Shown: one piece after another, positions 46,565 to 59,772 of the stretch
How the letters are laid out: each line of letters starts with the position of its first letter
Numbering within the stretch: the stretch's first letter is position 1
NCBI GenBank assembly: GCA_965200965.1
Contig: OZ241744.1
Span: 32,001 to 96,000 of the forward strand
Source: an uncultured Candidatus Binatia bacterium
GTDB lineage: Bacteria; Desulfobacterota; Binatia; Bin18
Length of the DNA: 64,000 bases
Reading direction: 5' to 3'
Notes under the pieces: generated by a model
Told to the model about the DNA's origin: nothing
Database searches by the model: none
The model's input: the letters and a program-made list of their open reading frames with translations, nothing else
Translations under genes and position numbers: made by a program

Positions 46565-47629
46565 ATGTGGGTCTGGCTTGTCTGCCTGACGCTGCTGTCC
46601 GCCTGCTCGCCGGTCTATGTCCTCAGGCTGGGCTATGAAGAGGCCAGGATTCTGTGGCATCGCCGGCCCATCAGCGATATCCTGAACCGGCCCGACCTTG
46701 ACCCTGCCACCCGCGACAAGCTGCGCCTCGTCTTGCGCGTCCGGGCCTTTGCCGAACACGAATTAGGCTTCAGGGTCCGCGGCAGCTACGCCAGCCTGAC
46801 CGAAGTCAGCCGTCCGCCGATTGTGCATGTGCTGAGCGCGGCCCCGCGGACTCGTCTCGAGCCGTATACCTGGTGGTTCCCGATCGTCGGCCGGGTGGCC
46901 TACAAGGGCTATTTCAACCAGGGTTTGGCCCGGGCAGACGCGCGCCGGCTCGAAGTCCAAGGCTATGATACCGCTGTCCGCCAAGCGTCGGCCTTCAGTA
47001 CCCTGGGCTGGTTTGACGACCCGCTGCTGCCGCATCTGCTGGGCTATGAGGCCGAAACGCTGGTCAATGTGATTTTTCATGAACTGTTTCACAGCACGTT
47101 TTACCTGGCCGGACACACGGCGTTTAACGAATCCCTGGCCAATTTTGCCGGCCATCGGGCCGCGATTGTCTTTTTTGCCCAGGAACACGGCCAAGACGCC
47201 GTGCTCACCCGCCGGGCCGAAGCCGGCTGGAGGCGGCAACTGCGGCTGTCCGAGTTGCTGGCCCGGGCCGCCGAGGGTTTGCGGGCACTCTACGCCTCAT
47301 CCCTGCCCGAGGCCGACAAGCTCAGCCAACGGGAAGAACGGTTTGCCGCCTTCCAGGCCGAATATCGGGCCCTGGCCGGGCCGGCTTCGGCCAAGGCCGG
47401 GCTCGCCTCGGGCCGGCTCAACAACGCCATCCTGATCAACCATTTGGTCTATATGCGAGAGCTGGGGCTTTTTGAGCAGGTCTATCAACAGGCCGGCCAG
47501 GATTTGCGCCGCACCCTGGAGCGCATTCCTGAAGTGGCGACAGGAGCCGCGGAGCCGTTCGCCGAGGTAAAAACGCTGCTCAAGCGGCCGGTGTCAGAAG
47601 AGCGCAACCCAAGCGCGTGGAATGGCTAG
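46565..47629 (+). CDS. putative zinc aminopeptidase lipoprotein (DUF2265-like)
   Basis: LSA|C lipobox; WWFPIVGRVAYKGYF, FSTLGWFDDP, HELFH..FNESLA. Confidence 0.85.
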   Translation: MWVWLVCLTLLSACSPVYVLRLGYEEARILWHRRPISDILNRPDLDPATRDKLRLVLRVRAFAEHELGFRVRGSYASLTEVSRPPIVHVLSAAPRTRLEPYTWWFPIVGRVAYKGYFNQGLARADARRLEVQGYDTAVRQASAFSTLGWFDDPLLPHLLGYEAETLVNVIFHELFHSTFYLAGHTAFNESLANFAGHRAAIVFFAQEHGQDAVLTRRAEAGWRRQLRLSELLARAAEGLRALYASSLPEADKLSQREERFAAFQAEYRALAGPASAKAGLASGRLNNAILINHLVYMRELGLFEQVYQQAGQDLRRTLERIPEVATGAAEPFAEVKTLLKRPVSEERNPSAWNG

Positions 47630-47841
47630 ACCGCTGTCTCAACCCAATCGCTTTCAGAAGCGGGGCCTGGAATGGGCTGGCCGCACTCGCGCAGCCCCTC
47701 CAGGTGAAAGTCAATCGCTTCCTCAATCAGGGCTGTCGCTTCCTGCCGTGTCTCTGCCACTGCAATACAGCCGGGGAGGTCGGGAATGTGAGCGCCCCAG
47801 CCTGACTCGCCTTTTTCAAGAATCACGAGATAGTACATCAT
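47626..47841 (-). CDS. HicB-like antitoxin family protein (no adjacent hicA)
   Basis: YLVILEKGESGWGAHIPDLPGCIAVAETRQEA..AIDFHLEGL. Confidence 0.88.
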   Translation of the reverse strand: MMYYLVILEKGESGWGAHIPDLPGCIAVAETRQEATALIEEAIDFHLEGLRECGQPIPGPASESDWVETAV

Positions 47842-48586: not shown

Positions 48587-49153
48587 ATGTCACATCCGCT
48601 GCGCCATACCCCCGAGTCCGTCCGATTCCTGGCCGACCGCACGGTCGGCAAGCTGGCCCGCTGGCTGCGCATCCTGGGCTATGACACCCTGTATTGGCCG
48701 CAGCTGACGCCGGTCGGCCTGCTGGCCGAGGGCCGCCGCCAGGGACGGGTGATCCTGAGCCGCAACACCCGCATTCTGCAAGGACGGAGCGTCTCGCCCT
48801 CCTCTCGGTCTGATGAGACGCGCCGGCCTTGGGTCAAAGACGCGCCGGCCTGTGTCTTCATCCGGCCCGCTCATTTCCGCCAGCAACTCAAGCAGGTGGT
48901 TGAAACGCTTGGGCTTGAGGTGACAAGCGCTGTGCTGAACCGCTGTGTGGCGTGCAATCAGGTCCTCCAGGCGGTCTCCAAGGCCGAGGTCGAGGCCCGG
49001 GTGCCGGCCTATGTGTGGCGCACCCAGTCGGCCTTTCGGCGCTGCCCCGGGTGTGGGCGTATCTACTGGCCGGCCAGCCACCGGGATCATATTCTGGCCG
49101 AGCTTGAGCGGCTGGGCTTGGCCGCGGCGACCGAAACGCGAGCGGAAAACTGA
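48587..49153 (+). CDS. Mut7-C RNase (PIN-like) domain protein containing a 17-aa palindrome-derived insertion
   Basis: FLADRTVGKLARWLRILGYDT, RCVACN, CPGCGRIYWPASH. Confidence 0.9.
   Translation: MSHPLRHTPESVRFLADRTVGKLARWLRILGYDTLYWPQLTPVGLLAEGRRQGRVILSRNTRILQGRSVSPSSRSDETRRPWVKDAPACVFIRPAHFRQQLKQVVETLGLEVTSAVLNRCVACNQVLQAVSKAEVEARVPAYVWRTQSAFRRCPGCGRIYWPASHRDHILAELERLGLAAATETRAEN
48780..48830 (+). repeat. 51-bp palindromic element, copy 1 (in frame in the Mut7-C gene)
   Basis: AAGGACGGAGCGTCTC-19 nt-GAGACGCGCCGGCCTT; 47/51 identical to the reverse complement of 49258-49308. Confidence 0.9.
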
Positions 49154-49590
49154 TGGCTGATCGCTGGGCCGGCTACTGGTTGTTGTGGGATGGGGGGTGA
49201 GGCTTCTGCCGCGGCTTTGTCGCTTGGGTCAAGCGACACGACCGGGCCGGTGTCATCGAGGACGGCGCGTCTCATCAGACCGAGAGGAAGGCGAGACGCG
49301 CCGTCCTTCGGGCTGTGGCCTGGCAGGACGCCCCCCGGCCGCCTGTGACGGATGAGTTGGCGCAGCGCTGTCGGCAGGCCCTCCATGTGATTACGCCGGC
49401 CGGCGAGACCTTGGCCGCCGGCCGGGCCAGTCTGTGTGTGCTGGGGCTGATCGGCTATCCGCGCTTGGCCCGTCTGGCCGGGCTACCGCCCTTCATCTGG
49501 GCGGTTGAGGCCGGCTACTGGCTTGTGGCCCGCAACCGGCGGTGGCTGAGCCGGGTGCTGTATGGCAAAAGCCAGCCCTGCCAATACTGA
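49153..49590 (+). CDS. DCC1-like (DUF393) thiol-disulfide oxidoreductase, candidate selenoprotein (UGA at codon 16)
   Basis: ATG overlaps the Mut7-C stop; MADRWAGYWLLWDGG-U-GFCRGF continues in frame to GYWLVARNRR; the UGA occupies the first Cys of DxxCxxC. Confidence 0.8.
49218..49238 (+). promoter_or_regulatory. bacterial SECIS-like hairpin
   Basis: TGTCGCTTG-GGT-CAAGCGACA perfect stem with a G-starting loop 26 nt downstream of the TGA at 49198-49200. Confidence 0.7.
49258..49308 (-). repeat. 51-bp palindromic element, copy 2 (inverted, in frame in the DCC gene)
   Basis: AGGACGGCGCGTCTC-19 nt-GAGACGCGCCGTCCT, a perfect 15-bp stem; encodes EDGASHQTERKARRAVL. Confidence 0.9.
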
Positions 49591-49652
49591 TGCGCGTCCT
49601 TAAAAGGCGTGATCGTGTCGCCTTCCCCTTGACCAGATGACACATTCACGCC

Positions 49653-49949
49653 TCAGTGCGACGGCGAGAGGGAGCGGGCGAGGCGTTCGGGAGAGAGGGC
49701 TTTTTCCAAGGGTCGCATGATCTGGCGTTCGACGGCCTGCCCGATATATGCGCTGCACGCCAGCCCCACAAGCCGCTGATATTGTTCGTGGGATATCTCC
49801 CCGCTGTCGCGGAACCTAGTCATTTTCCGGAGAAAAGCCCCGACATCTCTTGTGCTCAGTGAGCGGGGCTGGGGTGACTGTCCGGCTCTGGGACGCGGCA
49901 GGCGGTACGGCCGTAGGCGGGGAGCGTATGGCTTTGTAGCGTGTTTCAT
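49653..49949 (-). CDS. hypothetical basic protein, copy 1 of a duplicated gene
   Basis: Near-identical to 52640-52939, including about 60 bp of downstream flank. Confidence 0.6.
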   Translation of the reverse strand: MKHATKPYAPRLRPYRLPRPRAGQSPQPRSLSTRDVGAFLRKMTRFRDSGEISHEQYQRLVGLACSAYIGQAVERQIMRPLEKALSPERLARSLSPSH

Positions 49950-50041
49950 GGCTGTTCCGTCGGTCAATCGCGTGTTGTCTCCACCTTTGTCGCTGGTGTA
50001 GAGGAGCGGGGCGAGGGCCTGTGACACACCGCGTCGAGACC

Positions 50042-50425
50042 TTATGCAAGAGGCTGGGGTAACAAAACCGGCCTGGAGTGTTCGGCCAACTCCGCTTGCC
50101 AATCAAGGATGTCATCGCTCGGCCAGCCGGTAATGTTTGCGTGTCCAGGAGGGGTGTTGTCATACTCGACGCTCAGACCGCCAGGTCTCTCTGGGACAGC
50201 GTGTGTCGCAAGAATAGCCCACCCGTGCAATTTCTTTCCTCTGTCGCGCGCAACGGTTACGCCGCACTCTTCTGTGCGTTCATGCGGCCATGTATTGGTC
50301 CGAAACACGGAGACCTTGCCTTGGTGGGGTTGAAAGAGTTTGGCTTTCACGCCGGTCGCAGGCATCTTGTTCTTTTCCACGACAAATCGGGTCAGGGGTG
50401 GGCTGTCCTGGAGGCGTCCCATCAC
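50042..50425 (-). CDS. hypothetical protein, possible ADP-ribosyltransferase/RES-like toxin
   Basis: LTRF...LFQP..KVSVFR...LSVEYD..GHANITGWP (R-S-H spacing); abuts the upstream gene; low GC. Confidence 0.55.
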   Translation of the reverse strand: MMGRLQDSPPLTRFVVEKNKMPATGVKAKLFQPHQGKVSVFRTNTWPHERTEECGVTVARDRGKKLHGWAILATHAVPERPGGLSVEYDNTPPGHANITGWPSDDILDWQAELAEHSRPVLLPQPLA

Positions 50426-50893
50426 CTACCTGTCCTTTTCCTGTATCTGCGCCAATTTGGTAAAGCAGGGATCAATCAAATCTGCAATCTGATCCTCCCA
50501 AGCCCCAAGGTTTTTTGAGCGCGCCGTTCCATAAGTGCAGACATAGGCAACTGTTCCGTCCGGGTCAACCGTGAGCAGCAGCCGCCCATCTTTTTCAAGC
50601 ATCCATTCAAAATATACCCCTCCCTTTTCGGTCGCGCTCACGTCCGGGGCAGGAAGAGCAAAACAGTCTGCCGGGAACTGGTCAATCAGTTGGTGCGCAT
50701 ACTCTACCGCTTCGGGCGCGGCTGCTCCGTCAAACTCTGCTCCAATCTCCCCTTCCAAAAGTGCCCGGACCTCCCCCTCTTGGCGTTCTCTCTCCCTCTG
50801 TTCTTCCTCACCAGAGGAGAAAAATCTACTCACAGGCCGCATAGGAAGAGACCCTGGACAGGGTTCTTCCTCGGACATTTTGGATTCACTCAT
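50426..50893 (-). CDS. acidic hypothetical protein, possible antitoxin
   Basis: PAPDVSATEKGGVYFEW..LLLTVDPDG; its stop is directly followed by the start of 50042-50425. Confidence 0.6.
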   Translation of the reverse strand: MSESKMSEEEPCPGSLPMRPVSRFFSSGEEEQRERERQEGEVRALLEGEIGAEFDGAAAPEAVEYAHQLIDQFPADCFALPAPDVSATEKGGVYFEWMLEKDGRLLLTVDPDGTVAYVCTYGTARSKNLGAWEDQIADLIDPCFTKLAQIQEKDR

Positions 50894-50977
50894 GCTCAGG
50901 CCCTCTTCAGTTTGTGCGGTTTTATAGCCTGTTATGATGATCACACCGTAATGGCGCAATCCTACAAACTCTTTCTA

Positions 50978-51097
50978 CTGATGCCGACCCGCTGTCAACC
51001 CCCCCGTGGGGAAGCGGCAGGGGGGTGTCGGATGACGCTGTGCTACCCCGACCTGCGCGACTGGCTTGTGGCCCGCAACCGGCGGTGGCTGAGCCGG
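50978..51097. repeat. composite spacer 1: TTGACA-containing repeat + REP-like hairpin + 38-bp exact copy of the DCC gene 3' region
   Basis: 50978-51025 resembles 51990-52034; 51060-51097 is identical to 49517-49554. Confidence 0.85.
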
Positions 51098-51139
51098 TTC
51101 GTAGCGGGGGCAGGAGAGCGGGGCGGGTGAGGGCAGGAC

Positions 51140-51712
51140 TTACTTTGCTTTTTCCAAATCGGCGTAGGTCATAATTTTGTGATCTTGAACATCGAAGAAG
51201 TGGGCGAGCCAGCGCTGATAAAAACGAATATGGGCAAACTGACTTCTATCGTAATCCATAGCGCGTAGTAATTCGTTGTGGCACATCATATCAAGGACCC
51301 GATGGACTGGCGGTTCATCCGCCTCGATCCCAAGACGGTGCGCTCGAAACTTGGTGAGGGAGTGCATATCTCTCGGTTTTTCGGCCATTTCCATCTGCTG
51401 CTCAAGTTCGATAAATCGACGACACAAATCATCGTGGAGGCGGGCCGCAGGACCAGTCCCGACAACAAGGTCAATGGTGAAAAAGACAGTCACCAAGGCC
51501 GCGGCCAGGGAAGGGTAAAGCGTGCCCACATCGTTCAGCAGGGTAACGACCGTTGCCGAGCCAAAGATAACACCTAGCGCACTGGTGACTTGGCGGAAGC
51601 GGTCAAAGAACATCCGCCGCCGGGCGTGATAGCGAATGGACCGCCGAACGCCGAAAAGCAGGGCGTGCCACTCAGTATCGGGTTGATTTTGTGTTACGGT
51701 GTGGCCACTCAT
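51140..51712 (-). CDS. SLATT-like 2-TM effector protein
   Basis: LLFGVRRSIRYH..FFDR, two TM helices, AARLHDDL..FIELE, IEADEPP. Confidence 0.65.
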   Translation of the reverse strand: MSGHTVTQNQPDTEWHALLFGVRRSIRYHARRRMFFDRFRQVTSALGVIFGSATVVTLLNDVGTLYPSLAAALVTVFFTIDLVVGTGPAARLHDDLCRRFIELEQQMEMAEKPRDMHSLTKFRAHRLGIEADEPPVHRVLDMMCHNELLRAMDYDRSQFAHIRFYQRWLAHFFDVQDHKIMTYADLEKAK

Positions 51713-51754
51713 GACACTCTTCCCACATGTAGGATTGAAAAATTGACTTCCTGG

Positions 51755-51979
51755 TTAGTTGCTGTCGTCACCGTCGTCTTTCGGGGGTGGAGGTGGGAGG
51801 GTATCGCGTATTGTTTCTGTACGAGGCTTGTTGCTGTGACGAAATTCCTCGTCAATTCTTTCTCTGGGGCGGTCCTCGAGGGTTTTCTCTTTTTCTGCCT
51901 CTCTTTCTTTGAGGCGGTCCTCGAGGGTTTTCTCTTTTTCTGCCATTCGCTTTTCCTTTCTACGGGTTATCTTGAGCAT
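51755..51979 (-). CDS. small charged disordered peptide with an internal repeat and PPPPPK motif
   Basis: AEKEKTLEDR occurs twice (32-bp exact repeat, 45-bp period, 51868-51944); lies directly upstream of the SLATT-like gene. Confidence 0.55.
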   Translation of the reverse strand: MLKITRRKEKRMAEKEKTLEDRLKEREAEKEKTLEDRPRERIDEEFRHSNKPRTETIRDTLPPPPPKDDGDDSN

Positions 51980-51989
51980 ATCTTACTCG

Positions 51990-52132
51990 CTGATGCAAAC
52001 CCGTTGTCAACCCCTGTGGGAAAGCGGCAGGGGGCGTATCGGATCAGCGTAGCGTGATCCGATACGCACGACTAGCCTGTCTGGCCGGGAGGCCGGCTAT
52101 TGGCTTGTGGCCCGCAACCGGAGGTGGCTGAG
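51990..52132. repeat. composite spacer 2: TTGACA-containing repeat + perfect REP-like hairpin + degenerate DCC 3' copy
   Basis: GCGTATCGGATCA-GCGTAGCG-TGATCCGATACGC (52034-52067); 52089-52132 matches 49507-49550 at 42/44. Confidence 0.85.
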
Positions 52133-52140
52133 GGCAAAAG

Positions 52141-52575
52141 CTAGCCCCGCCAATGCCGGACGCCGTAGCCGGCCCCAAAGCCGCCAGCAAAAGCAGCAAG
52201 CACTTGGACAATCTGTTTATAGAGTTCTTTGTCAGCCGGTGCCAAGTAGAATGTCAACAGGCCGAACGAGAGAAGCACAATCAGGATGTAGACCAGCCTG
52301 TAGCGCCGGTCGGCCTTGGAGTACTCGAATGATCGCTCATCGTTCCTGCCGTCGTTCTCGATGAGTGTAGTGATATGGTCTTCGGTGAGCTTTTCGAGTA
52401 CGGGATTACGGGCGGGACCAATTGTTCCTGCAATAACTTGCTCAAATTGCTCTTCTATGACCTGTCGAGAAGCTGGGACAGAAGCCTCTTCTTGTCCGGG
52501 AGATTCTTGCTGCTCGCCCTCTGGGGTTGGTTTCGTGAGCGAACTATCAGGGCTGTCCGTGGGCTTGTCAGCCAC
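52141..52575 (-). CDS. 2-TM membrane protein (DUF2335-like architecture)
   Basis: Acidic disordered N-terminus, GPARNPVLEKLTEDHI, two C-terminal TM helices ending GGFGAGYG. Confidence 0.6.
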   Translation of the reverse strand: MADKPTDSPDSSLTKPTPEGEQQESPGQEEASVPASRQVIEEQFEQVIAGTIGPARNPVLEKLTEDHITTLIENDGRNDERSFEYSKADRRYRLVYILIVLLSFGLLTFYLAPADKELYKQIVQVLAAFAGGFGAGYGVRHWRG

Positions 52576-52639
52576 CGCTGGGCGTCCTTAAGAGGCGTGA
52601 CCGTGTCGCCTTCCCATCAGCCAGATAACCATTCACGCC

Positions 52640-52939
52640 TCAGTGTGACGGCGAGAGGGAGCGGGCGAGGCGTTCGGGGGAGAGAGCTTTTTCCAAGGGT
52701 CGCATGATCTGGCGTTCGACGGCCTGCTCGATATATGCGCTACACGCCAGCCCCACAAGCCGCTGATATTGTTCGTGGGATATCTCCCCGCTGTCGCGGA
52801 ACTTGGTCATTTTCCGGAGAAAAACCCCGACATCTCTTGTGCTCAGTGAGCGGGGTTGGGGTGACTGTTCCGCTCCGGTACGCGGCAGGCGGTACGGCCG
52901 TAGGCGGGGAGCGTATGGCTTTATGGCAGTCTGTTTCAT
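52640..52939 (-). CDS. hypothetical basic protein, copy 2
   Basis: GAGGA RBS; paralog of 49653-49949. Confidence 0.65.
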   Translation of the reverse strand: MKQTAIKPYAPRLRPYRLPRTGAEQSPQPRSLSTRDVGVFLRKMTKFRDSGEISHEQYQRLVGLACSAYIEQAVERQIMRPLEKALSPERLARSLSPSH

Positions 52940-52947
52940 GGGTGTCC

Positions 52948-53223
52948 TCAGGCTGTGCGCGGCGCGGTGCGGCTGATCACGCGGCTCTCACGTTCCTGAA
53001 ACCGTGTGCGTAAATCCCGGCGCAGGCCGTAGAGCGGAATGCCGCCCGGGGTGAGGGGCGACCGGATAAACAGGTCCTGATGTGCCTGGATGTAGGTCTG
53101 GACTTGCTCCGGGGAGAGGCCGGTCTGTCTGGCGATGCCCCCCGGAGTGCGCCACAGGGAGCGGGGGCCACAAAAGGCATTCACCAGCTTCGCCCCAATG
53201 GGATCAGTAAACAGTTCATTCAT
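52948..53223 (-). CDS. small protein, possible winged helix-turn-helix
   Basis: AGGAGG RBS; WRTPGGIARQTGLSPEQVQTYI; ATGA overlap with the upstream gene. Confidence 0.6.
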   Translation of the reverse strand: MNELFTDPIGAKLVNAFCGPRSLWRTPGGIARQTGLSPEQVQTYIQAHQDLFIRSPLTPGGIPLYGLRRDLRTRFQERESRVISRTAPRTA

Positions 53224-53567
53224 GGTGACTCCTCCTGTTGAGAAAGGCACTCGGGTTTAACCCGCGTGGTGATGATGTCCGCGAGCGCATCCTGAAACCC
53301 GTCGCTGTTGATAAACTCCTTGAGAGGCGTCACGTCTTCGTACAGATTGCGGGGCCGCCAAACCGTAATCCCTGCAACGACGAGGATCACGATCAGGAAC
53401 ACGATTATCATCAGTACAACTACATAAAATTGGTGGTCCGCACTGAGTTGAGAATTGATGACGACTAAGCCGATAATGCCTTCAATAACCAGCAAGCCCA
53501 CGGTGAAAAAGATCAGTGGATTGCGGACCTGAGTGAGCAACTTGGCTGGATTCTGTCCCACCGTCAT
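53220..53567 (-). CDS. 2-TM membrane protein
   Basis: VRNPLIFF + two hydrophobic helices + RPRNLY; CTGACC-17 nt-TAGAAT promoter candidate at 53648-53620. Confidence 0.7.
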   Translation of the reverse strand: MTVGQNPAKLLTQVRNPLIFFTVGLLVIEGIIGLVVINSQLSADHQFYVVVLMIIVFLIVILVVAGITVWRPRNLYEDVTPLKEFINSDGFQDALADIITTRVKPECLSQQEESP

Positions 53568-53778
53568 TTACGGTTGTCCCGTCGGTCAATCTCGCGTTGT
53601 CTCCCCCTTTGTCCCGTTCATTCTACTCCCCCCGCGTCGCAGGGTCAGCAGTTTTCCCCATGAAATATTCTTATCGGCTAGCATCAGCGCGTCTTATCAA
53701 AGCGGGCACTACGGGGAATGCGGGGACTTGGGGGAGGGGCGAAGGTCAGGGGAATCCCGGAATCATATGAGTCGGGGT

Positions 53779-56667
53779 TCAGACCCGGCCTTTGCCACCA
53801 TGTACGGAGGGTTCGGCGCACCATTTGGCGGCCAAGCGACGCACGGCCTTCCAGGTGGCTTCGGTGAAGCCGAGCAGGTCGCGGACGACACCGCGGTCGA
53901 GCCGGGCGCGGTTGGGGTCGGCCGCGGCCAAGTGGGCCGGCAGCAATACTGTGGTGCGGAACTCGTCGAAGATGGCCCGGGCGGTAGCAAGCTGGGCGGG
54001 GCTGAGGGCGCGGAAGTCAAGGACAGGCAGGGTTTCGGCGGAGCGGATGGTGAGCCGGGCCTTGCTGGATTGCTGGCGGCTCGAGTGCCACCAGTACGAT
54101 AGGAGGCCCAGGGTGCTGTTGCTCCACACGGCGAAGGCGTAATCGAATGTTCCATCGTCAAAAATGACGTTGGGCCACACCGTCCCGCCTATTGATGCGT
54201 GATCGGTGAAGGCGACTGCGAGGGGTTGAGAGCCAAATGTGTACTCCAGGTTAAGATGAACGCGGCTGGCGGTTGCCCATACCTCGGCGGCTTTGGTTTC
54301 CATGCCTATCCGAACCTGCAAGGCCGAGTCAGGGGCGCACACCATCCGCGTTTCTTTTTTGGCAGCGTGGTTCCACAGGGCGGGGTAGGTGGCGGTCGGG
54401 CTGGCCGCGGCCTTGGTGAACGGCCCACGCGGGGGCGGGCCGATGATGTCACGATGGACGAGGCCGAGCCTGCCTACCACGCCTAGGGGAGCGGTTTTCA
54501 GCTCAAGGGCGGCGGTGGCCGGCAGCCACAGTTGGGAGCGGGTCAGGGCGTAGGCGGTTTGGGCCAGGGCAGCATCCAGCAGCCGGACTGTGCCCCACGG
54601 TGCGCCGTTGGTGGGGCACGGGGCGGTCAGCGTCTCGCCGGCCAGTTCATCCCCGACGGTCAGGCGTGTGCCGCCGTAGGGGCCGTCTTCAATGTGCCGG
54701 ATGTTGTCGGCCGTGGCGATGCTTCTGGCCAGTTCGGCGGCCTGGGCAAAGCCCTGCGGGCGGTGGGTCAAGGAGACGAAACGGGCCGCCTGTAGGGCGT
54801 CGTCCGACTTGGCGTCACGGCGTTTGCGGGCAATGACCAGGCATTCGGCCATGCCCGTGTCTGAGGAGAAGGACATCTCCATGCCGGAGGCGGCAATGCT
54901 CAACACGGTCAGGTCTGTATATTTTTGGGCGAGCATATGCCGGAAGCCCTGCCAGGACAGGCCGGCGGCCGCGGACAGGGGCAGGACCAGGGCCAGCACG
55001 CCGCCGGGCTTGAGCTTGGCGTGGGCCAAGCCGGCAAAGGCCGAGGCAATGCCTGCGTTGCCGTGATAGCAACTGTGCTTGCCAAAGGTGTTGATGCGGG
55101 CTCCCATCGCGGTCTGGTCGGCCCGCGTGGCGTCAAACGCGGCAAAAGCCGGGTTGGTCACGTCGGCGTGTGCGCCCTCGTGGTTGGTGGCGCGGGTGAA
55201 AGGCGGGTTCATAATCACCAAGTCAAAACCCTCGTCTGGAATATCGGCCAGAATGTGGGTGGCGGTTTCTTCGCCAAGGCTGCCGGTGCGCTTGGCCGGA
55301 TCGCTGGTGTTGAGGAGTACCAATTGCCGGGTGGAGTGCAGCAGTTCCAGTGAGCCGATCTTCACGCTGGCGTCTGGCTGGCGGCCGTAGGCCAGGGTGT
55401 AGAGGCGCGAGCTGCCAAAGCTGGCTTGGGGCTGGACGCCGGACAGGGTGGAGCCGGTGATGTGGATGGCTGAGGGCATCACGTCGCAGCCGTACAGGAC
55501 TTCTTCCATCATGACCGGATGGAGGTCGGCCGGGTTGCCGCCGGTGCGCTCGTGGCGGCTGGCGATCTGCTCGTAGACCGCGGACAGCAGCGCGCCGGTG
55601 CCGCAGGCAAAGTCGGCGATGCGCAGCCGGCCAATGGCCGCGGGGTCGGCCCAGTCCAGGCCGCGGAGCTTGGCCACAGCCAAGCGGGCCAGCAGGGCCG
55701 CGGAGGCCGGCAGGGTGTAGAAGGTGGCCAGGTATTTGCGGTCGGCAATCAGACGCTGGAAGATGCGCCCGGTCAGGTCATGGGCGTTGGTGGCACCGGT
55801 GGAGGCGACGCCTTCGGCGGTGTGTCGCAGGGCGTGCAGGAGGGGGGCGGCGGTGGCCGGTGGCAGTTGGGCCACGATATCGCGGGCAATCGCAAAGATG
55901 GGCCAGTAGTTGATGTCCAGGATGGCGGTCCAGGCGGTCAGGATTTCATCCTGGGGGTTGGTGACAGCTTGGCCACAGACGAGGTGCAGGGGCTTGACCT
56001 CGGGGTACATACCGGCCAGCCGCTCGTGGAAGATCAGGGCGTTGGCAAGAATGGCGCAGGCCATGCGGCGGGTCTGGGCCACATCGGCCATGCCCAGCAG
56101 CCGGGCGATATGGGGGGCAATGGCCGGGCGTTGCTCGGCCATGTCGTGCAGGATGCTCACGCCGGCGTCAATGCCGTCCTCGAGGGCGCTGGCCGCGGCG
56201 TCTACGGCGTGCTGGGGGATGGACACGAGGCGGATCAGGTCGGCCAGATCGGCAACTGAGCCGGTCAGCCAGCCGGCGGCGGGAAAGCGCTGTGTATCCT
56301 GCTTATTCTGGCTGAAGACGCACCAGGACAGCGTGGCCCCGGCTATGGCCGCTTGCAGATCGTCGGCGGAAGCCAGGGTTTGCGGGTAGCGCAGGGCGAT
56401 AGCGGCCTCAATGGGGGTGGATTCGTGCACGACCGGCAAACCGAGACGGCTCGCAGCCTCGGCCTCGACGCTGCGGGCCGGGAAGTATTCGGCTTCAAGT
56501 GCGACCGGGGCGCGGTCCGGGGCGGTGATGGCGATGTCGAGTTGCAGCCCGGCATGGCCGGCGACAAGCCGGGTGTGCTCGGCCCGGACCTGGCAGCCGG
56601 ACATCATGCCGTTCAGCAGCCCGGCCAGGGCGGTGTTGGCGCTTGGTTCGGTCTGGTGGCCGCTCAT
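53779..56667 (-). CDS. single-chain restriction-modification protein (type IIG-like: nuclease-like N-terminus, N6-adenine methyltransferase, target-recognition domain)
   Basis: ATFYT, IADFACGTGALL (motif I), VIMNPPF (motif IV); N-terminal LDIAI...ALEAEY PD-(D/E)xK-like segment. Confidence 0.8.
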   Translation of the reverse strand: MSGHQTEPSANTALAGLLNGMMSGCQVRAEHTRLVAGHAGLQLDIAITAPDRAPVALEAEYFPARSVEAEAASRLGLPVVHESTPIEAAIALRYPQTLASADDLQAAIAGATLSWCVFSQNKQDTQRFPAAGWLTGSVADLADLIRLVSIPQHAVDAAASALEDGIDAGVSILHDMAEQRPAIAPHIARLLGMADVAQTRRMACAILANALIFHERLAGMYPEVKPLHLVCGQAVTNPQDEILTAWTAILDINYWPIFAIARDIVAQLPPATAAPLLHALRHTAEGVASTGATNAHDLTGRIFQRLIADRKYLATFYTLPASAALLARLAVAKLRGLDWADPAAIGRLRIADFACGTGALLSAVYEQIASRHERTGGNPADLHPVMMEEVLYGCDVMPSAIHITGSTLSGVQPQASFGSSRLYTLAYGRQPDASVKIGSLELLHSTRQLVLLNTSDPAKRTGSLGEETATHILADIPDEGFDLVIMNPPFTRATNHEGAHADVTNPAFAAFDATRADQTAMGARINTFGKHSCYHGNAGIASAFAGLAHAKLKPGGVLALVLPLSAAAGLSWQGFRHMLAQKYTDLTVLSIAASGMEMSFSSDTGMAECLVIARKRRDAKSDDALQAARFVSLTHRPQGFAQAAELARSIATADNIRHIEDGPYGGTRLTVGDELAGETLTAPCPTNGAPWGTVRLLDAALAQTAYALTRSQLWLPATAALELKTAPLGVVGRLGLVHRDIIGPPPRGPFTKAAASPTATYPALWNHAAKKETRMVCAPDSALQVRIGMETKAAEVWATASRVHLNLEYTFGSQPLAVAFTDHASIGGTVWPNVIFDDGTFDYAFAVWSNSTLGLLSYWWHSSRQQSSKARLTIRSAETLPVLDFRALSPAQLATARAIFDEFRTTVLLPAHLAAADPNRARLDRGVVRDLLGFTEATWKAVRRLAAKWCAEPSVHGGKGRV

Positions 56668-56683
56668 GCGTTCTTCCTCCTGC

Positions 56684-58103: not shown

Positions 58104-58238
58104 CTGCCTGTAGTGTTAGCCGACTCCCGGCCAGCAGACAAGCGCGCCCGCCTGGTATCGCCGAGGACGGAATGTGTCATCAGATCAACAGGAAGGCGAC
58201 ATGTTCCATCCTTCCGGTCTGTCGGCTATGATTCGAAT

Positions 58239-59584: not shown

Positions 59585-59772
59585 GACCTGCGTCGTGCGG
59601 TGTGGGTCAGGCCCGACCCGCGAATAACCCTATACCGGCCTCGGGTGAGTATGCTATGGTCACGGCTCTCGGCCTGTGACAGCGGAAGCTGCTGGAAAGA
59701 AGGACGGATTGCGTCGCCTTCCCCTCGTTCTGTTGACGCGAGCCGTCCTCATGGACTGTGAAAGGGGCACAC

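Follow-up and report, generated by a model that had tools for sequence, protein, structure and literature searches.

Selenocysteine (Sec) forms of thioredoxin (PF00085), glutaredoxin (PF00462) and Prx-like proteins (PF00578, UxxC and UxxU) are catalogued with Sec placed in a motif derived from CxxC (PMC13188914). The catalogued thioredoxin-fold selenoproteins carry their SECIS element inside the coding region and use the standard SelA/B/C/D apparatus. In the accessible part of the source, Group 4 [NiFe] hydrogenases are described as having CXXU, UXXC or UXXU in some members, interspersed with Cys forms; for these, one downstream SECIS has been proposed, but not tested, to serve both UGA codons (PMC13582414). 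The Cys-type DCC1-like proteins (DUF393, PF04134; 'YuxK' in source names) include Arabidopsis DCC1, which according to the accessible part of its report reduces carbonic anhydrase 2 (PMC7598583).

Here we describe a DCC-family gene, found in a window of 64,000 nucleotides (the whole stretch of DNA analysed, from an uncultured Candidatus Binatia bacterium), in which a TGA codon and a SECIS-like hairpin accompany the family motif. The gene has in common with Cys-type DCC proteins the Pfam match and the position of DxxCxxC, and differs from them in having TGA at the first Cys, a hairpin in the coding region (present in 0 of 46 Cys forms) and, in this copy, a 17-residue repeat insertion. The predicted position of Sec, the location of the hairpin and the standard Sec machinery are as in the catalogued thioredoxin-fold selenoproteins, but the family is a different one, with no Pfam match to PF00085, PF00462 or PF00578 at E 0.01. 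Scattering of Sec states among Cys forms is shared with the Group 4 hydrogenases; going by the accessible part of that report, the hydrogenase motif is a metal ligand in a large multi-subunit enzyme, whereas DCC proteins are single domains of 14-16 kDa, and, as a further difference from the hydrogenases, the Cys forms of DCC examined have lost the hairpin as well.

PF04134 is missing from the 119 families in Table 1 of the 2026 catalogue (PMC13188914), in agreement with a preliminary description of the locus, which did not place the family among the classical bacterial selenoproteins. DCC/DUF393 was likewise not found in the accessible parts of PMC12013277, PMC13326102, PMC13745706 and PMC9312934. 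NCBIfam (June 2026) held no matching model, and no selenoprotein model matched at E 0.1; a literature search, which left most subscription papers outside, returned no report linking selenoproteins with the DUF393/DCC1 family. New Sec families appear regularly, so a Sec-containing DCC family is by itself a modest surprise.

A DCC-family reading frame with one in-frame TGA

The upstream Mut7-C gene ends in a TGA (49151-49153) whose last base is also the A of the DCC gene's ATG at 49153 (Table 1), an overlap that makes translational coupling likely. The frame is 145 codons long and closes with a TGA at 49588-49590; codon 16 is its sole internal TGA. Coordinates and overlap reproduce the preliminary description, which had reported an ATG coupled to the Mut7-C stop and a 145-codon frame with a single TGA; the frame stands, but codons 36-52 proved to be a 51-nt insertion that the description had missed. 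A profile search with the read-through product matched PF04134 at 39 bits (cut-off 27.8, E 2.2e-9), and the family alignment places the codon-16 TGA at the first Cys of DxxCxxC, where it had been placed before. The motif reads D-G-G-U-G-F-C, and D13, U16 and C19 are invariant columns when U is read as C. A rough pattern count finds the third cysteine (Cys73) in 55 of 71 sequences of the Sec type and in 44 of 46 of the Cys type.

Table 1 Features of the DCC locus and related features of the window and genome (window positions unless a G000:C1 genome coordinate is given)
Feature	Position	Strand	Remarks
HicB-like antitoxin domain	47626-47841	-	
Mut7-C RNase-domain gene	48587..49153	+	Upstream of the DCC gene; own 51-nt in-frame insertion at 48780-48830
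Mut7-C stop / DCC start overlap	49151..49155	+	Same overlap in genome G007
DCC1-like (DUF393) gene	49153..49590	+	145 codons with TGA as Sec; 128 without the repeat insertion
In-frame TGA, codon 16	49198..49200	+	First position of D-x-x-U-x-x-C; predicted selenocysteine
Cys19 (TGC)	49207..49209	+	TGA in most Sec-type relatives
SECIS-like hairpin	49218..49238	+	9-bp stem, GGU loop at 49227-49229
51-nt palindromic repeat, in frame (residues 36-52)	49258..49308	+	Missing in G007; in the model, a loop joining helix 1 to strand 2
Cys73	49369..49371	+	Third cysteine, invariant in the 34-row alignment
Window copies of the 51-nt palindromic repeat (n=5)	48780-48830, 49258-49308, 49603-49656, 58160-58217, 59696-59751		
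190-aa protein, two hydrophobic helices	51140-51712	-	Sub-threshold SLATT match, E 0.09; no PADLOC match
962-aa protein	53779-56667	-	Eco57I Pfam match over cut-off; weak PADLOC MTase and type IIG matches, E 1e-9 to 5e-4
Other in-frame TGA genes (SelW-like, three UGSC, PrdB-like, selD)	G000:C1 900029, 2190127, 666533, 2802149, 3480320, 3226706		Each with a G-loop hairpin 17-22 nt downstream

The plain ORF list and the public gene call of this genome both contain just the 91-aa tail of the DCC gene, as had already been remarked of the ORF track, and fragments of 80-101 aa lacking the active site make up 15 of the 81 protein matches. This exposes a systematic annotation fault, in that Sec DCC proteins are called as fragments without an active site. 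Runs with the label sponge metagenome contain the stretch, and no RNA dataset was listed as containing it. The codon-16 TGA was covered and unchanged in four of four public runs from three studies. Across these runs the DCC gene showed 17 changes (10 synonymous, 7 other), none of them in the motif; one change opens the outermost hairpin pair, and another, at codon 141, cuts the protein short within its unconserved tail.

A hairpin conserved in TGA-type genes

The 9-bp hairpin with a GGT loop that had been described 26 nt downstream of the TGA was found again on folding (208 nt), with nine Watson-Crick pairs (49218-49226 with 49230-49238) at pair probabilities of 0.93-1.0. Measured to the loop, the spacing is 26 nt from codon 16 and 17 nt from codon 19, and the energy of the 35-nt segment is -16.6 kcal/mol. 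In the accessible part of the 2026 catalogue, the bacterial SECIS model has a loop of 3-9 nt with G in its first two positions, a stem of 4-16 bp, a spacing of 16-37 nt and an energy of at most -7.5 kcal/mol, and the DCC hairpin agrees with it in all four respects (PMC13188914), its distances from codon 16 and from codon 19 alike falling within the spacing range; SECIS features were also taken from the accessible part of PMC1088965. An equally good hairpin follows 28 of the 113,129 TGA triplets in the genome, and 2,081 motif-bearing TGA sites pass a looser rule, which makes a genome-wide scan for UGA plus hairpin too noisy for listing selenoproteins. The hairpin alone is therefore no proof, and the proof lies in the comparison with relatives.

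After removal of duplicates (147 to 121 rows; 75 TGA-type and 46 Cys-type), all six inner pairs were formed in 68 of the 75 TGA-type genes and in none of the 46 Cys-type genes. In a second set, the corresponding figures were 15 of 17 (3 of these 17 repeat the first set) and 0 of 32. Pair 27-35 is C-G in 53 rows and U-A in 20, and three further pairs covary. Synonymous-codon shuffles, which treat the rows as independent although these are related by descent, formed the six inner pairs in 0.8 of 75 rows, and none of 500 shuffles reached the 57 cells in which both sides of a pair are changed. Control structures slid along the alignment were 15-43% paired, compared with 92% at the real position. 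The rare codon AGG occupies the 3' arm of the hairpin in 50 of 75 TGA-type genes, compared with 47 of 1,237 Arg codons elsewhere. RNAalifold returned the same stem and no other, and the 60-nt alignment contained no second conserved hairpin that could serve the first UGA. The loss of the hairpin in Cys forms and the rare AGG are stronger points than the shuffle, and the comparison indicates that the hairpin is selected as RNA.

The other six Sec genes of the genome have a hairpin spacing of 17-22 nt, as against 26 nt for codon 16 of the DCC gene, and this longer spacing may make decoding at codon 16 less efficient. The hairpin fits the second motif position best, which suggests that the ancestor of this UxxC gene was of the UxxU or CxxU type; alternatively, the place of the loop could simply reflect an invariant Trp codon that fixes its possible position.

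Selenocysteine machinery and genetic code of the genome

The preliminary description had named a lack of Sec machinery as a result that would refute it, and all four of selA, selB, selC and selD are present in the genome, a single 3.62-Mb contig. The selA gene (E 3e-156) adjoins the sole tRNA-Sec (UCA), and the one copy of selB over cut-off adjoins a selD that itself contains an in-frame TGA. Five further genes with an in-frame TGA were confirmed from a codon-bias scan in which candidates were picked by eye: a SelW-like gene, three UGSC genes (over cut-off) and a PrdB-like gene (under cut-off). No match over cut-off to a Sec-type FdhA was found in the genome. TGA is the commonest stop, ending 365 of 650 long ORFs, and a reassigned genetic code was excluded on that ground. 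ARAGORN also made two oddly long calls, tRNA-Phe(aaa) of 90 nt and tRNA-Arg(tcg) of 91 nt (G000:C1 176513-176602 and 279139-279229).

Sec and Cys states among relatives

Searches reading through stops covered the class (301 genomes) and three other phyla (201, 301 and 251 genomes), and one scan of the genome collection was a further source of TGA genomes. In the 301-genome class search and the 201-genome search, DNA was inspected for the best 46 and 30 loci and the rest were typed by the stop column. The TGA is kept in seven of seven genomes of the same genus, whereas TGY in all close relatives would have spoken for a nonsense mutation; five of the seven have a second TGA at codon 19. A TGA at the motif was found in 30 genomes of five phyla (10 Binatia, 11 Myxococcota, 5 Armatimonadota, 3 Chloroflexota and 1 labelled Cyanobacteria). 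Five of these genomes are UxxC (G004, G007, G021, G470 and G000, the genome studied here), five are CxxU (G349, G375, G781, G977 and G917) and the remaining 20 are UxxU. The one-Sec UxxC form of the preliminary description thus holds for this copy, but UxxC is a minority among relatives and UxxU is commoner. A metagenome pattern scan, which asked for UxxU only and so biases the frequencies of states, found at least 120 loci, 70 of which, among the matches listed, scored above 50 bits on the family profile. Two genomes with a TGA inside the match but off the motif (G185, G046) were counted as Cys or left out, and one locus (L248, G363) had no stop within the match.

Matches to selB were found in 13 of 14 TGA-type versus 32 of 47 Cys-type genomes, and to selA in 15 of 15 versus 20 of 31. 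Two TGA genomes (G025 and G349) had no selB match, yet have selA and tRNA-Sec. Either selA or selB is present in all 30 TGA genomes, most of which were checked for one of the two genes only. The Cys-type genus g8 has selB in 25 of 25 genomes; in many genomes Sec genes thus go together with a Cys-type DCC gene, so Sec is unnecessary for the job of the family.

In a tree built by a quick method (182 rows, 123 columns, CxxU rows absent), the DCC gene shares a starred group with rows of the UxxU (five), UxxC (three) and CxxC (one) types. The tree needs 18 state changes, but the starred branches force only two, so the number of origins and the direction of change are not shown by it. Two individual loci stood out. 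The CxxU gene L240 lacks the family hairpin, forming 2 of its 6 pairs; its genome (G375) has both selA and selB, and the gene represents either a nonsense change or a different SECIS. The UxxC copy L208 (G004) has an intact hairpin and a frameshift after the third Cys, from decay or an assembly error.

Predicted fold and function

Identity to full-length Cys-type proteins named as DCC family is 55-65%. A model predicted from 34 rows (pLDDT 73.6) has a beta-alpha-beta-alpha-beta-beta-alpha core followed by three helices; the motif comes after strand 1 and before helix 1, where thioredoxins usually have their catalytic site. Its top structural matches, N-terminal domains of GST and thioredoxins, are of moderate strength (the best has Z 6.2 and rmsd 2.9 across 74 residues) and do no more than suggest a thioredoxin-like fold; a sequence search found no solved structure of a relative.

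Mut7-C precedes the DCC gene in 26 loci, of Sec and Cys types alike. Among the remaining loci, any other neighbour was present in four at most, save genes shared within Binatia, and gene context therefore gives no substrate. To our knowledge, no substrate has been described for bacterial members of the DCC family.

A 51-nt repeat within the gene

Compared with G007, the DCC gene and the Mut7-C gene each show a gap of exactly 51 nt (49258-49308 and 48780-48830). The repeat responsible has 86 matches in the genome, and 38 of 79 full-length copies lie inside coding-like ORFs; 12 host ORFs were scanned, of which 7 could be named, and genes with an in-frame copy include dnaX, murJ and a member of the tRNA nucleotidyltransferase family. 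In the DCC gene, the insertion keeps the frame and starts 19 nt past the hairpin, which is undisturbed, and in the model it forms a low-confidence loop after which strand 2 re-forms. With in-frame copies in other genes and a loop in the model, the insertion is weak evidence of decay. Short palindromic repeats inserted in frame into many genes are familiar from the Rickettsia palindromic elements; the 51-nt element is likened to these by description and for the in-frame insertion only.

The last nine codons of the DCC gene differ from G007. Fragments of the DCC 3' end recur at 51057-51097 (98% over 41 nt) and 52080-52154 (78% over 90 columns), both preceded by a related 57-nt stretch, and 49591-49960 is repeated at 52579-52945 (92%). 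The pattern looks like repeated insertion at the 3' end of the DCC gene.

Proposed decoding and alternative explanations

Given the sel genes and the co-occurrence of TGA and hairpin in relatives, the earlier proposal of a Sec-containing DCC1/DUF393 protein is supported, and on this comparative evidence the codon-16 TGA is very likely read as Sec. For the whole explanation, Sec coding together with a predicted function as a thiol-disulfide oxidoreductase, we put the probability at about 80%. By analogy with established bacterial Sec decoding, ribosomes ending Mut7-C would restart at the overlapping ATG, and SelB-GTP with Sec-tRNA(UCA) would bind the GGU-loop hairpin and deliver Sec at codon 16; in the absence of selenium, release at codon 16 would leave a 15-residue peptide. 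In keeping with the chemistry of thioredoxin folds, the attacking nucleophile would be Sec16, located where helix 1 begins, Cys19 would resolve the intermediate to give a selenenyl-sulfide, and a cellular reductant would recycle the protein, so that the DCC selenoprotein would work like known UxxC selenoenzymes while belonging to the DCC family. In relatives with two TGA codons, a single hairpin would serve both, at distances of 26 and 17 nt, and oxidation would give a diselenide at the active site. The UxxC copy most likely descends from a UxxU gene by a change of Sec19 to Cys, a direction that the tree does not supply, and the protein probably accommodates its 17-residue insertion in a surface loop.

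Three other ways of explaining the TGA are extremely improbable: a nonsense mutation, a sequencing error next to a run of G, and a reassigned genetic code. A single change converts TGC or TGT to TGA, codon 16 follows six G, and the public gene calls hold the 91-aa tail alone; but TGA recurs at the exact motif positions in 30 genomes of five phyla with open frames behind it, the covarying hairpin accompanies TGA forms only, the codon is unchanged in four runs, and TGA is the genome's commonest stop. Taken as comparative evidence, this conservation, the hairpin, the runs and the stop usage speak for rejecting all three. The UGA could also be read as Cys by a SECIS-dependent tRNA-ReC (SelC*), giving an ordinary CxxC protein. 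According to the accessible part of the hydrogenase report, this tRNA is able to decode UGA as Cys before a SECIS and occurs in about 56% of genomes with UXXU hydrogenases, including Armatimonadota (PMC13582414). The genome has one selB over cut-off with no second SelB paralogue, one UCA tRNA, called as tRNA-Sec, and one ordinary tRNA-Cys of 74 nt; no extra SelC-like tRNA was found among its 51 tRNAs or 11 tRNA-Sec model matches (general tRNA and tRNA-Sec models), and the four other genomes screened have one tRNA-Sec each. Decoding as Cys is consequently considered very unlikely, though less so than a nonsense change or error.

Two further explanations accept a Sec gene but not its present role, and both are unlikely, if somewhat less so than decoding as Cys. 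The copy may have true Sec ancestry and be decaying to a non-functional state, with the insertion, the missing second Sec and rearrangement of the 3' end as the causes. The insertion at residues 36-52, the frameshifted G004 copy, the last nine codons unlike G007, the stop at codon 141 in one run and the recurring 3'-end fragments (51057-51097, 52080-52154) fit such decay; it is opposed by an insertion that is in frame, leaves the hairpin undisturbed and forms a low-confidence loop in the model, by the same repeat lying in frame within dnaX, murJ and the tRNA nucleotidyltransferase-family gene, and by strain changes that are mostly synonymous and absent from the motif. Alternatively, a Sec protein might bind a metal or metalloid through Sec16, Cys19 and Cys73, or be a redox sensor, instead of a catalytic oxidoreductase. 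In thioredoxin folds the loop before strand 3 adjoins CxxC, and the third Cys, invariant in the 34-row alignment, lies before strand 3 in the model. All four of CxxC, UxxC, CxxU and UxxU occur, moreover, and the accessible part of the hydrogenase report describes the same for the Ni-binding motif of the Group 4 enzymes (PMC13582414). A catalytic role is favoured by Arabidopsis DCC1, the only family member with a described activity considered here, which according to the accessible part of its report reduces a partner protein (PMC7598583), by the motif at the usual thioredoxin catalytic position of the model, and by the absence of recurrent metal-resistance neighbours.

We consider it probable that the DCC family includes a widespread, uncatalogued selenoenzyme branch, the usual form of which would have two Sec three codons apart, one 21-nt hairpin for the decoding of both and a diselenide centre, with frequent switching between UxxU, UxxC, CxxU and CxxC; the gene described here would be a one-Sec reversion. 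This would add to the bacterial selenoproteome a family absent from the catalogue checked, and the use of Sec would mark the first Cys position of the DCC family as redox-active. Most useful is the series of UxxU, UxxC and CxxU under one hairpin: a 14-kDa protein with all four Sec/Cys states would be a test system for one SECIS decoding two close UGA codons, and, if the explanation is true, a natural series for the reach of SelB from one SECIS and for the effect of a second selenium on a thioredoxin-fold site.

Neighbouring genes

PADLOC gave no match for four of the five ORFs downstream of the DCC gene; the 962-aa protein is probably a restriction-modification fusion. About 7 kb of variable genes (49591-56683) separate the DCC gene from a downstream gene that we take to be TrmL-like. 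In G007, the DCC gene abuts a homologue of the 51140-51712 gene, and in 24 related loci a TrmL-like gene lies directly downstream of the DCC gene.
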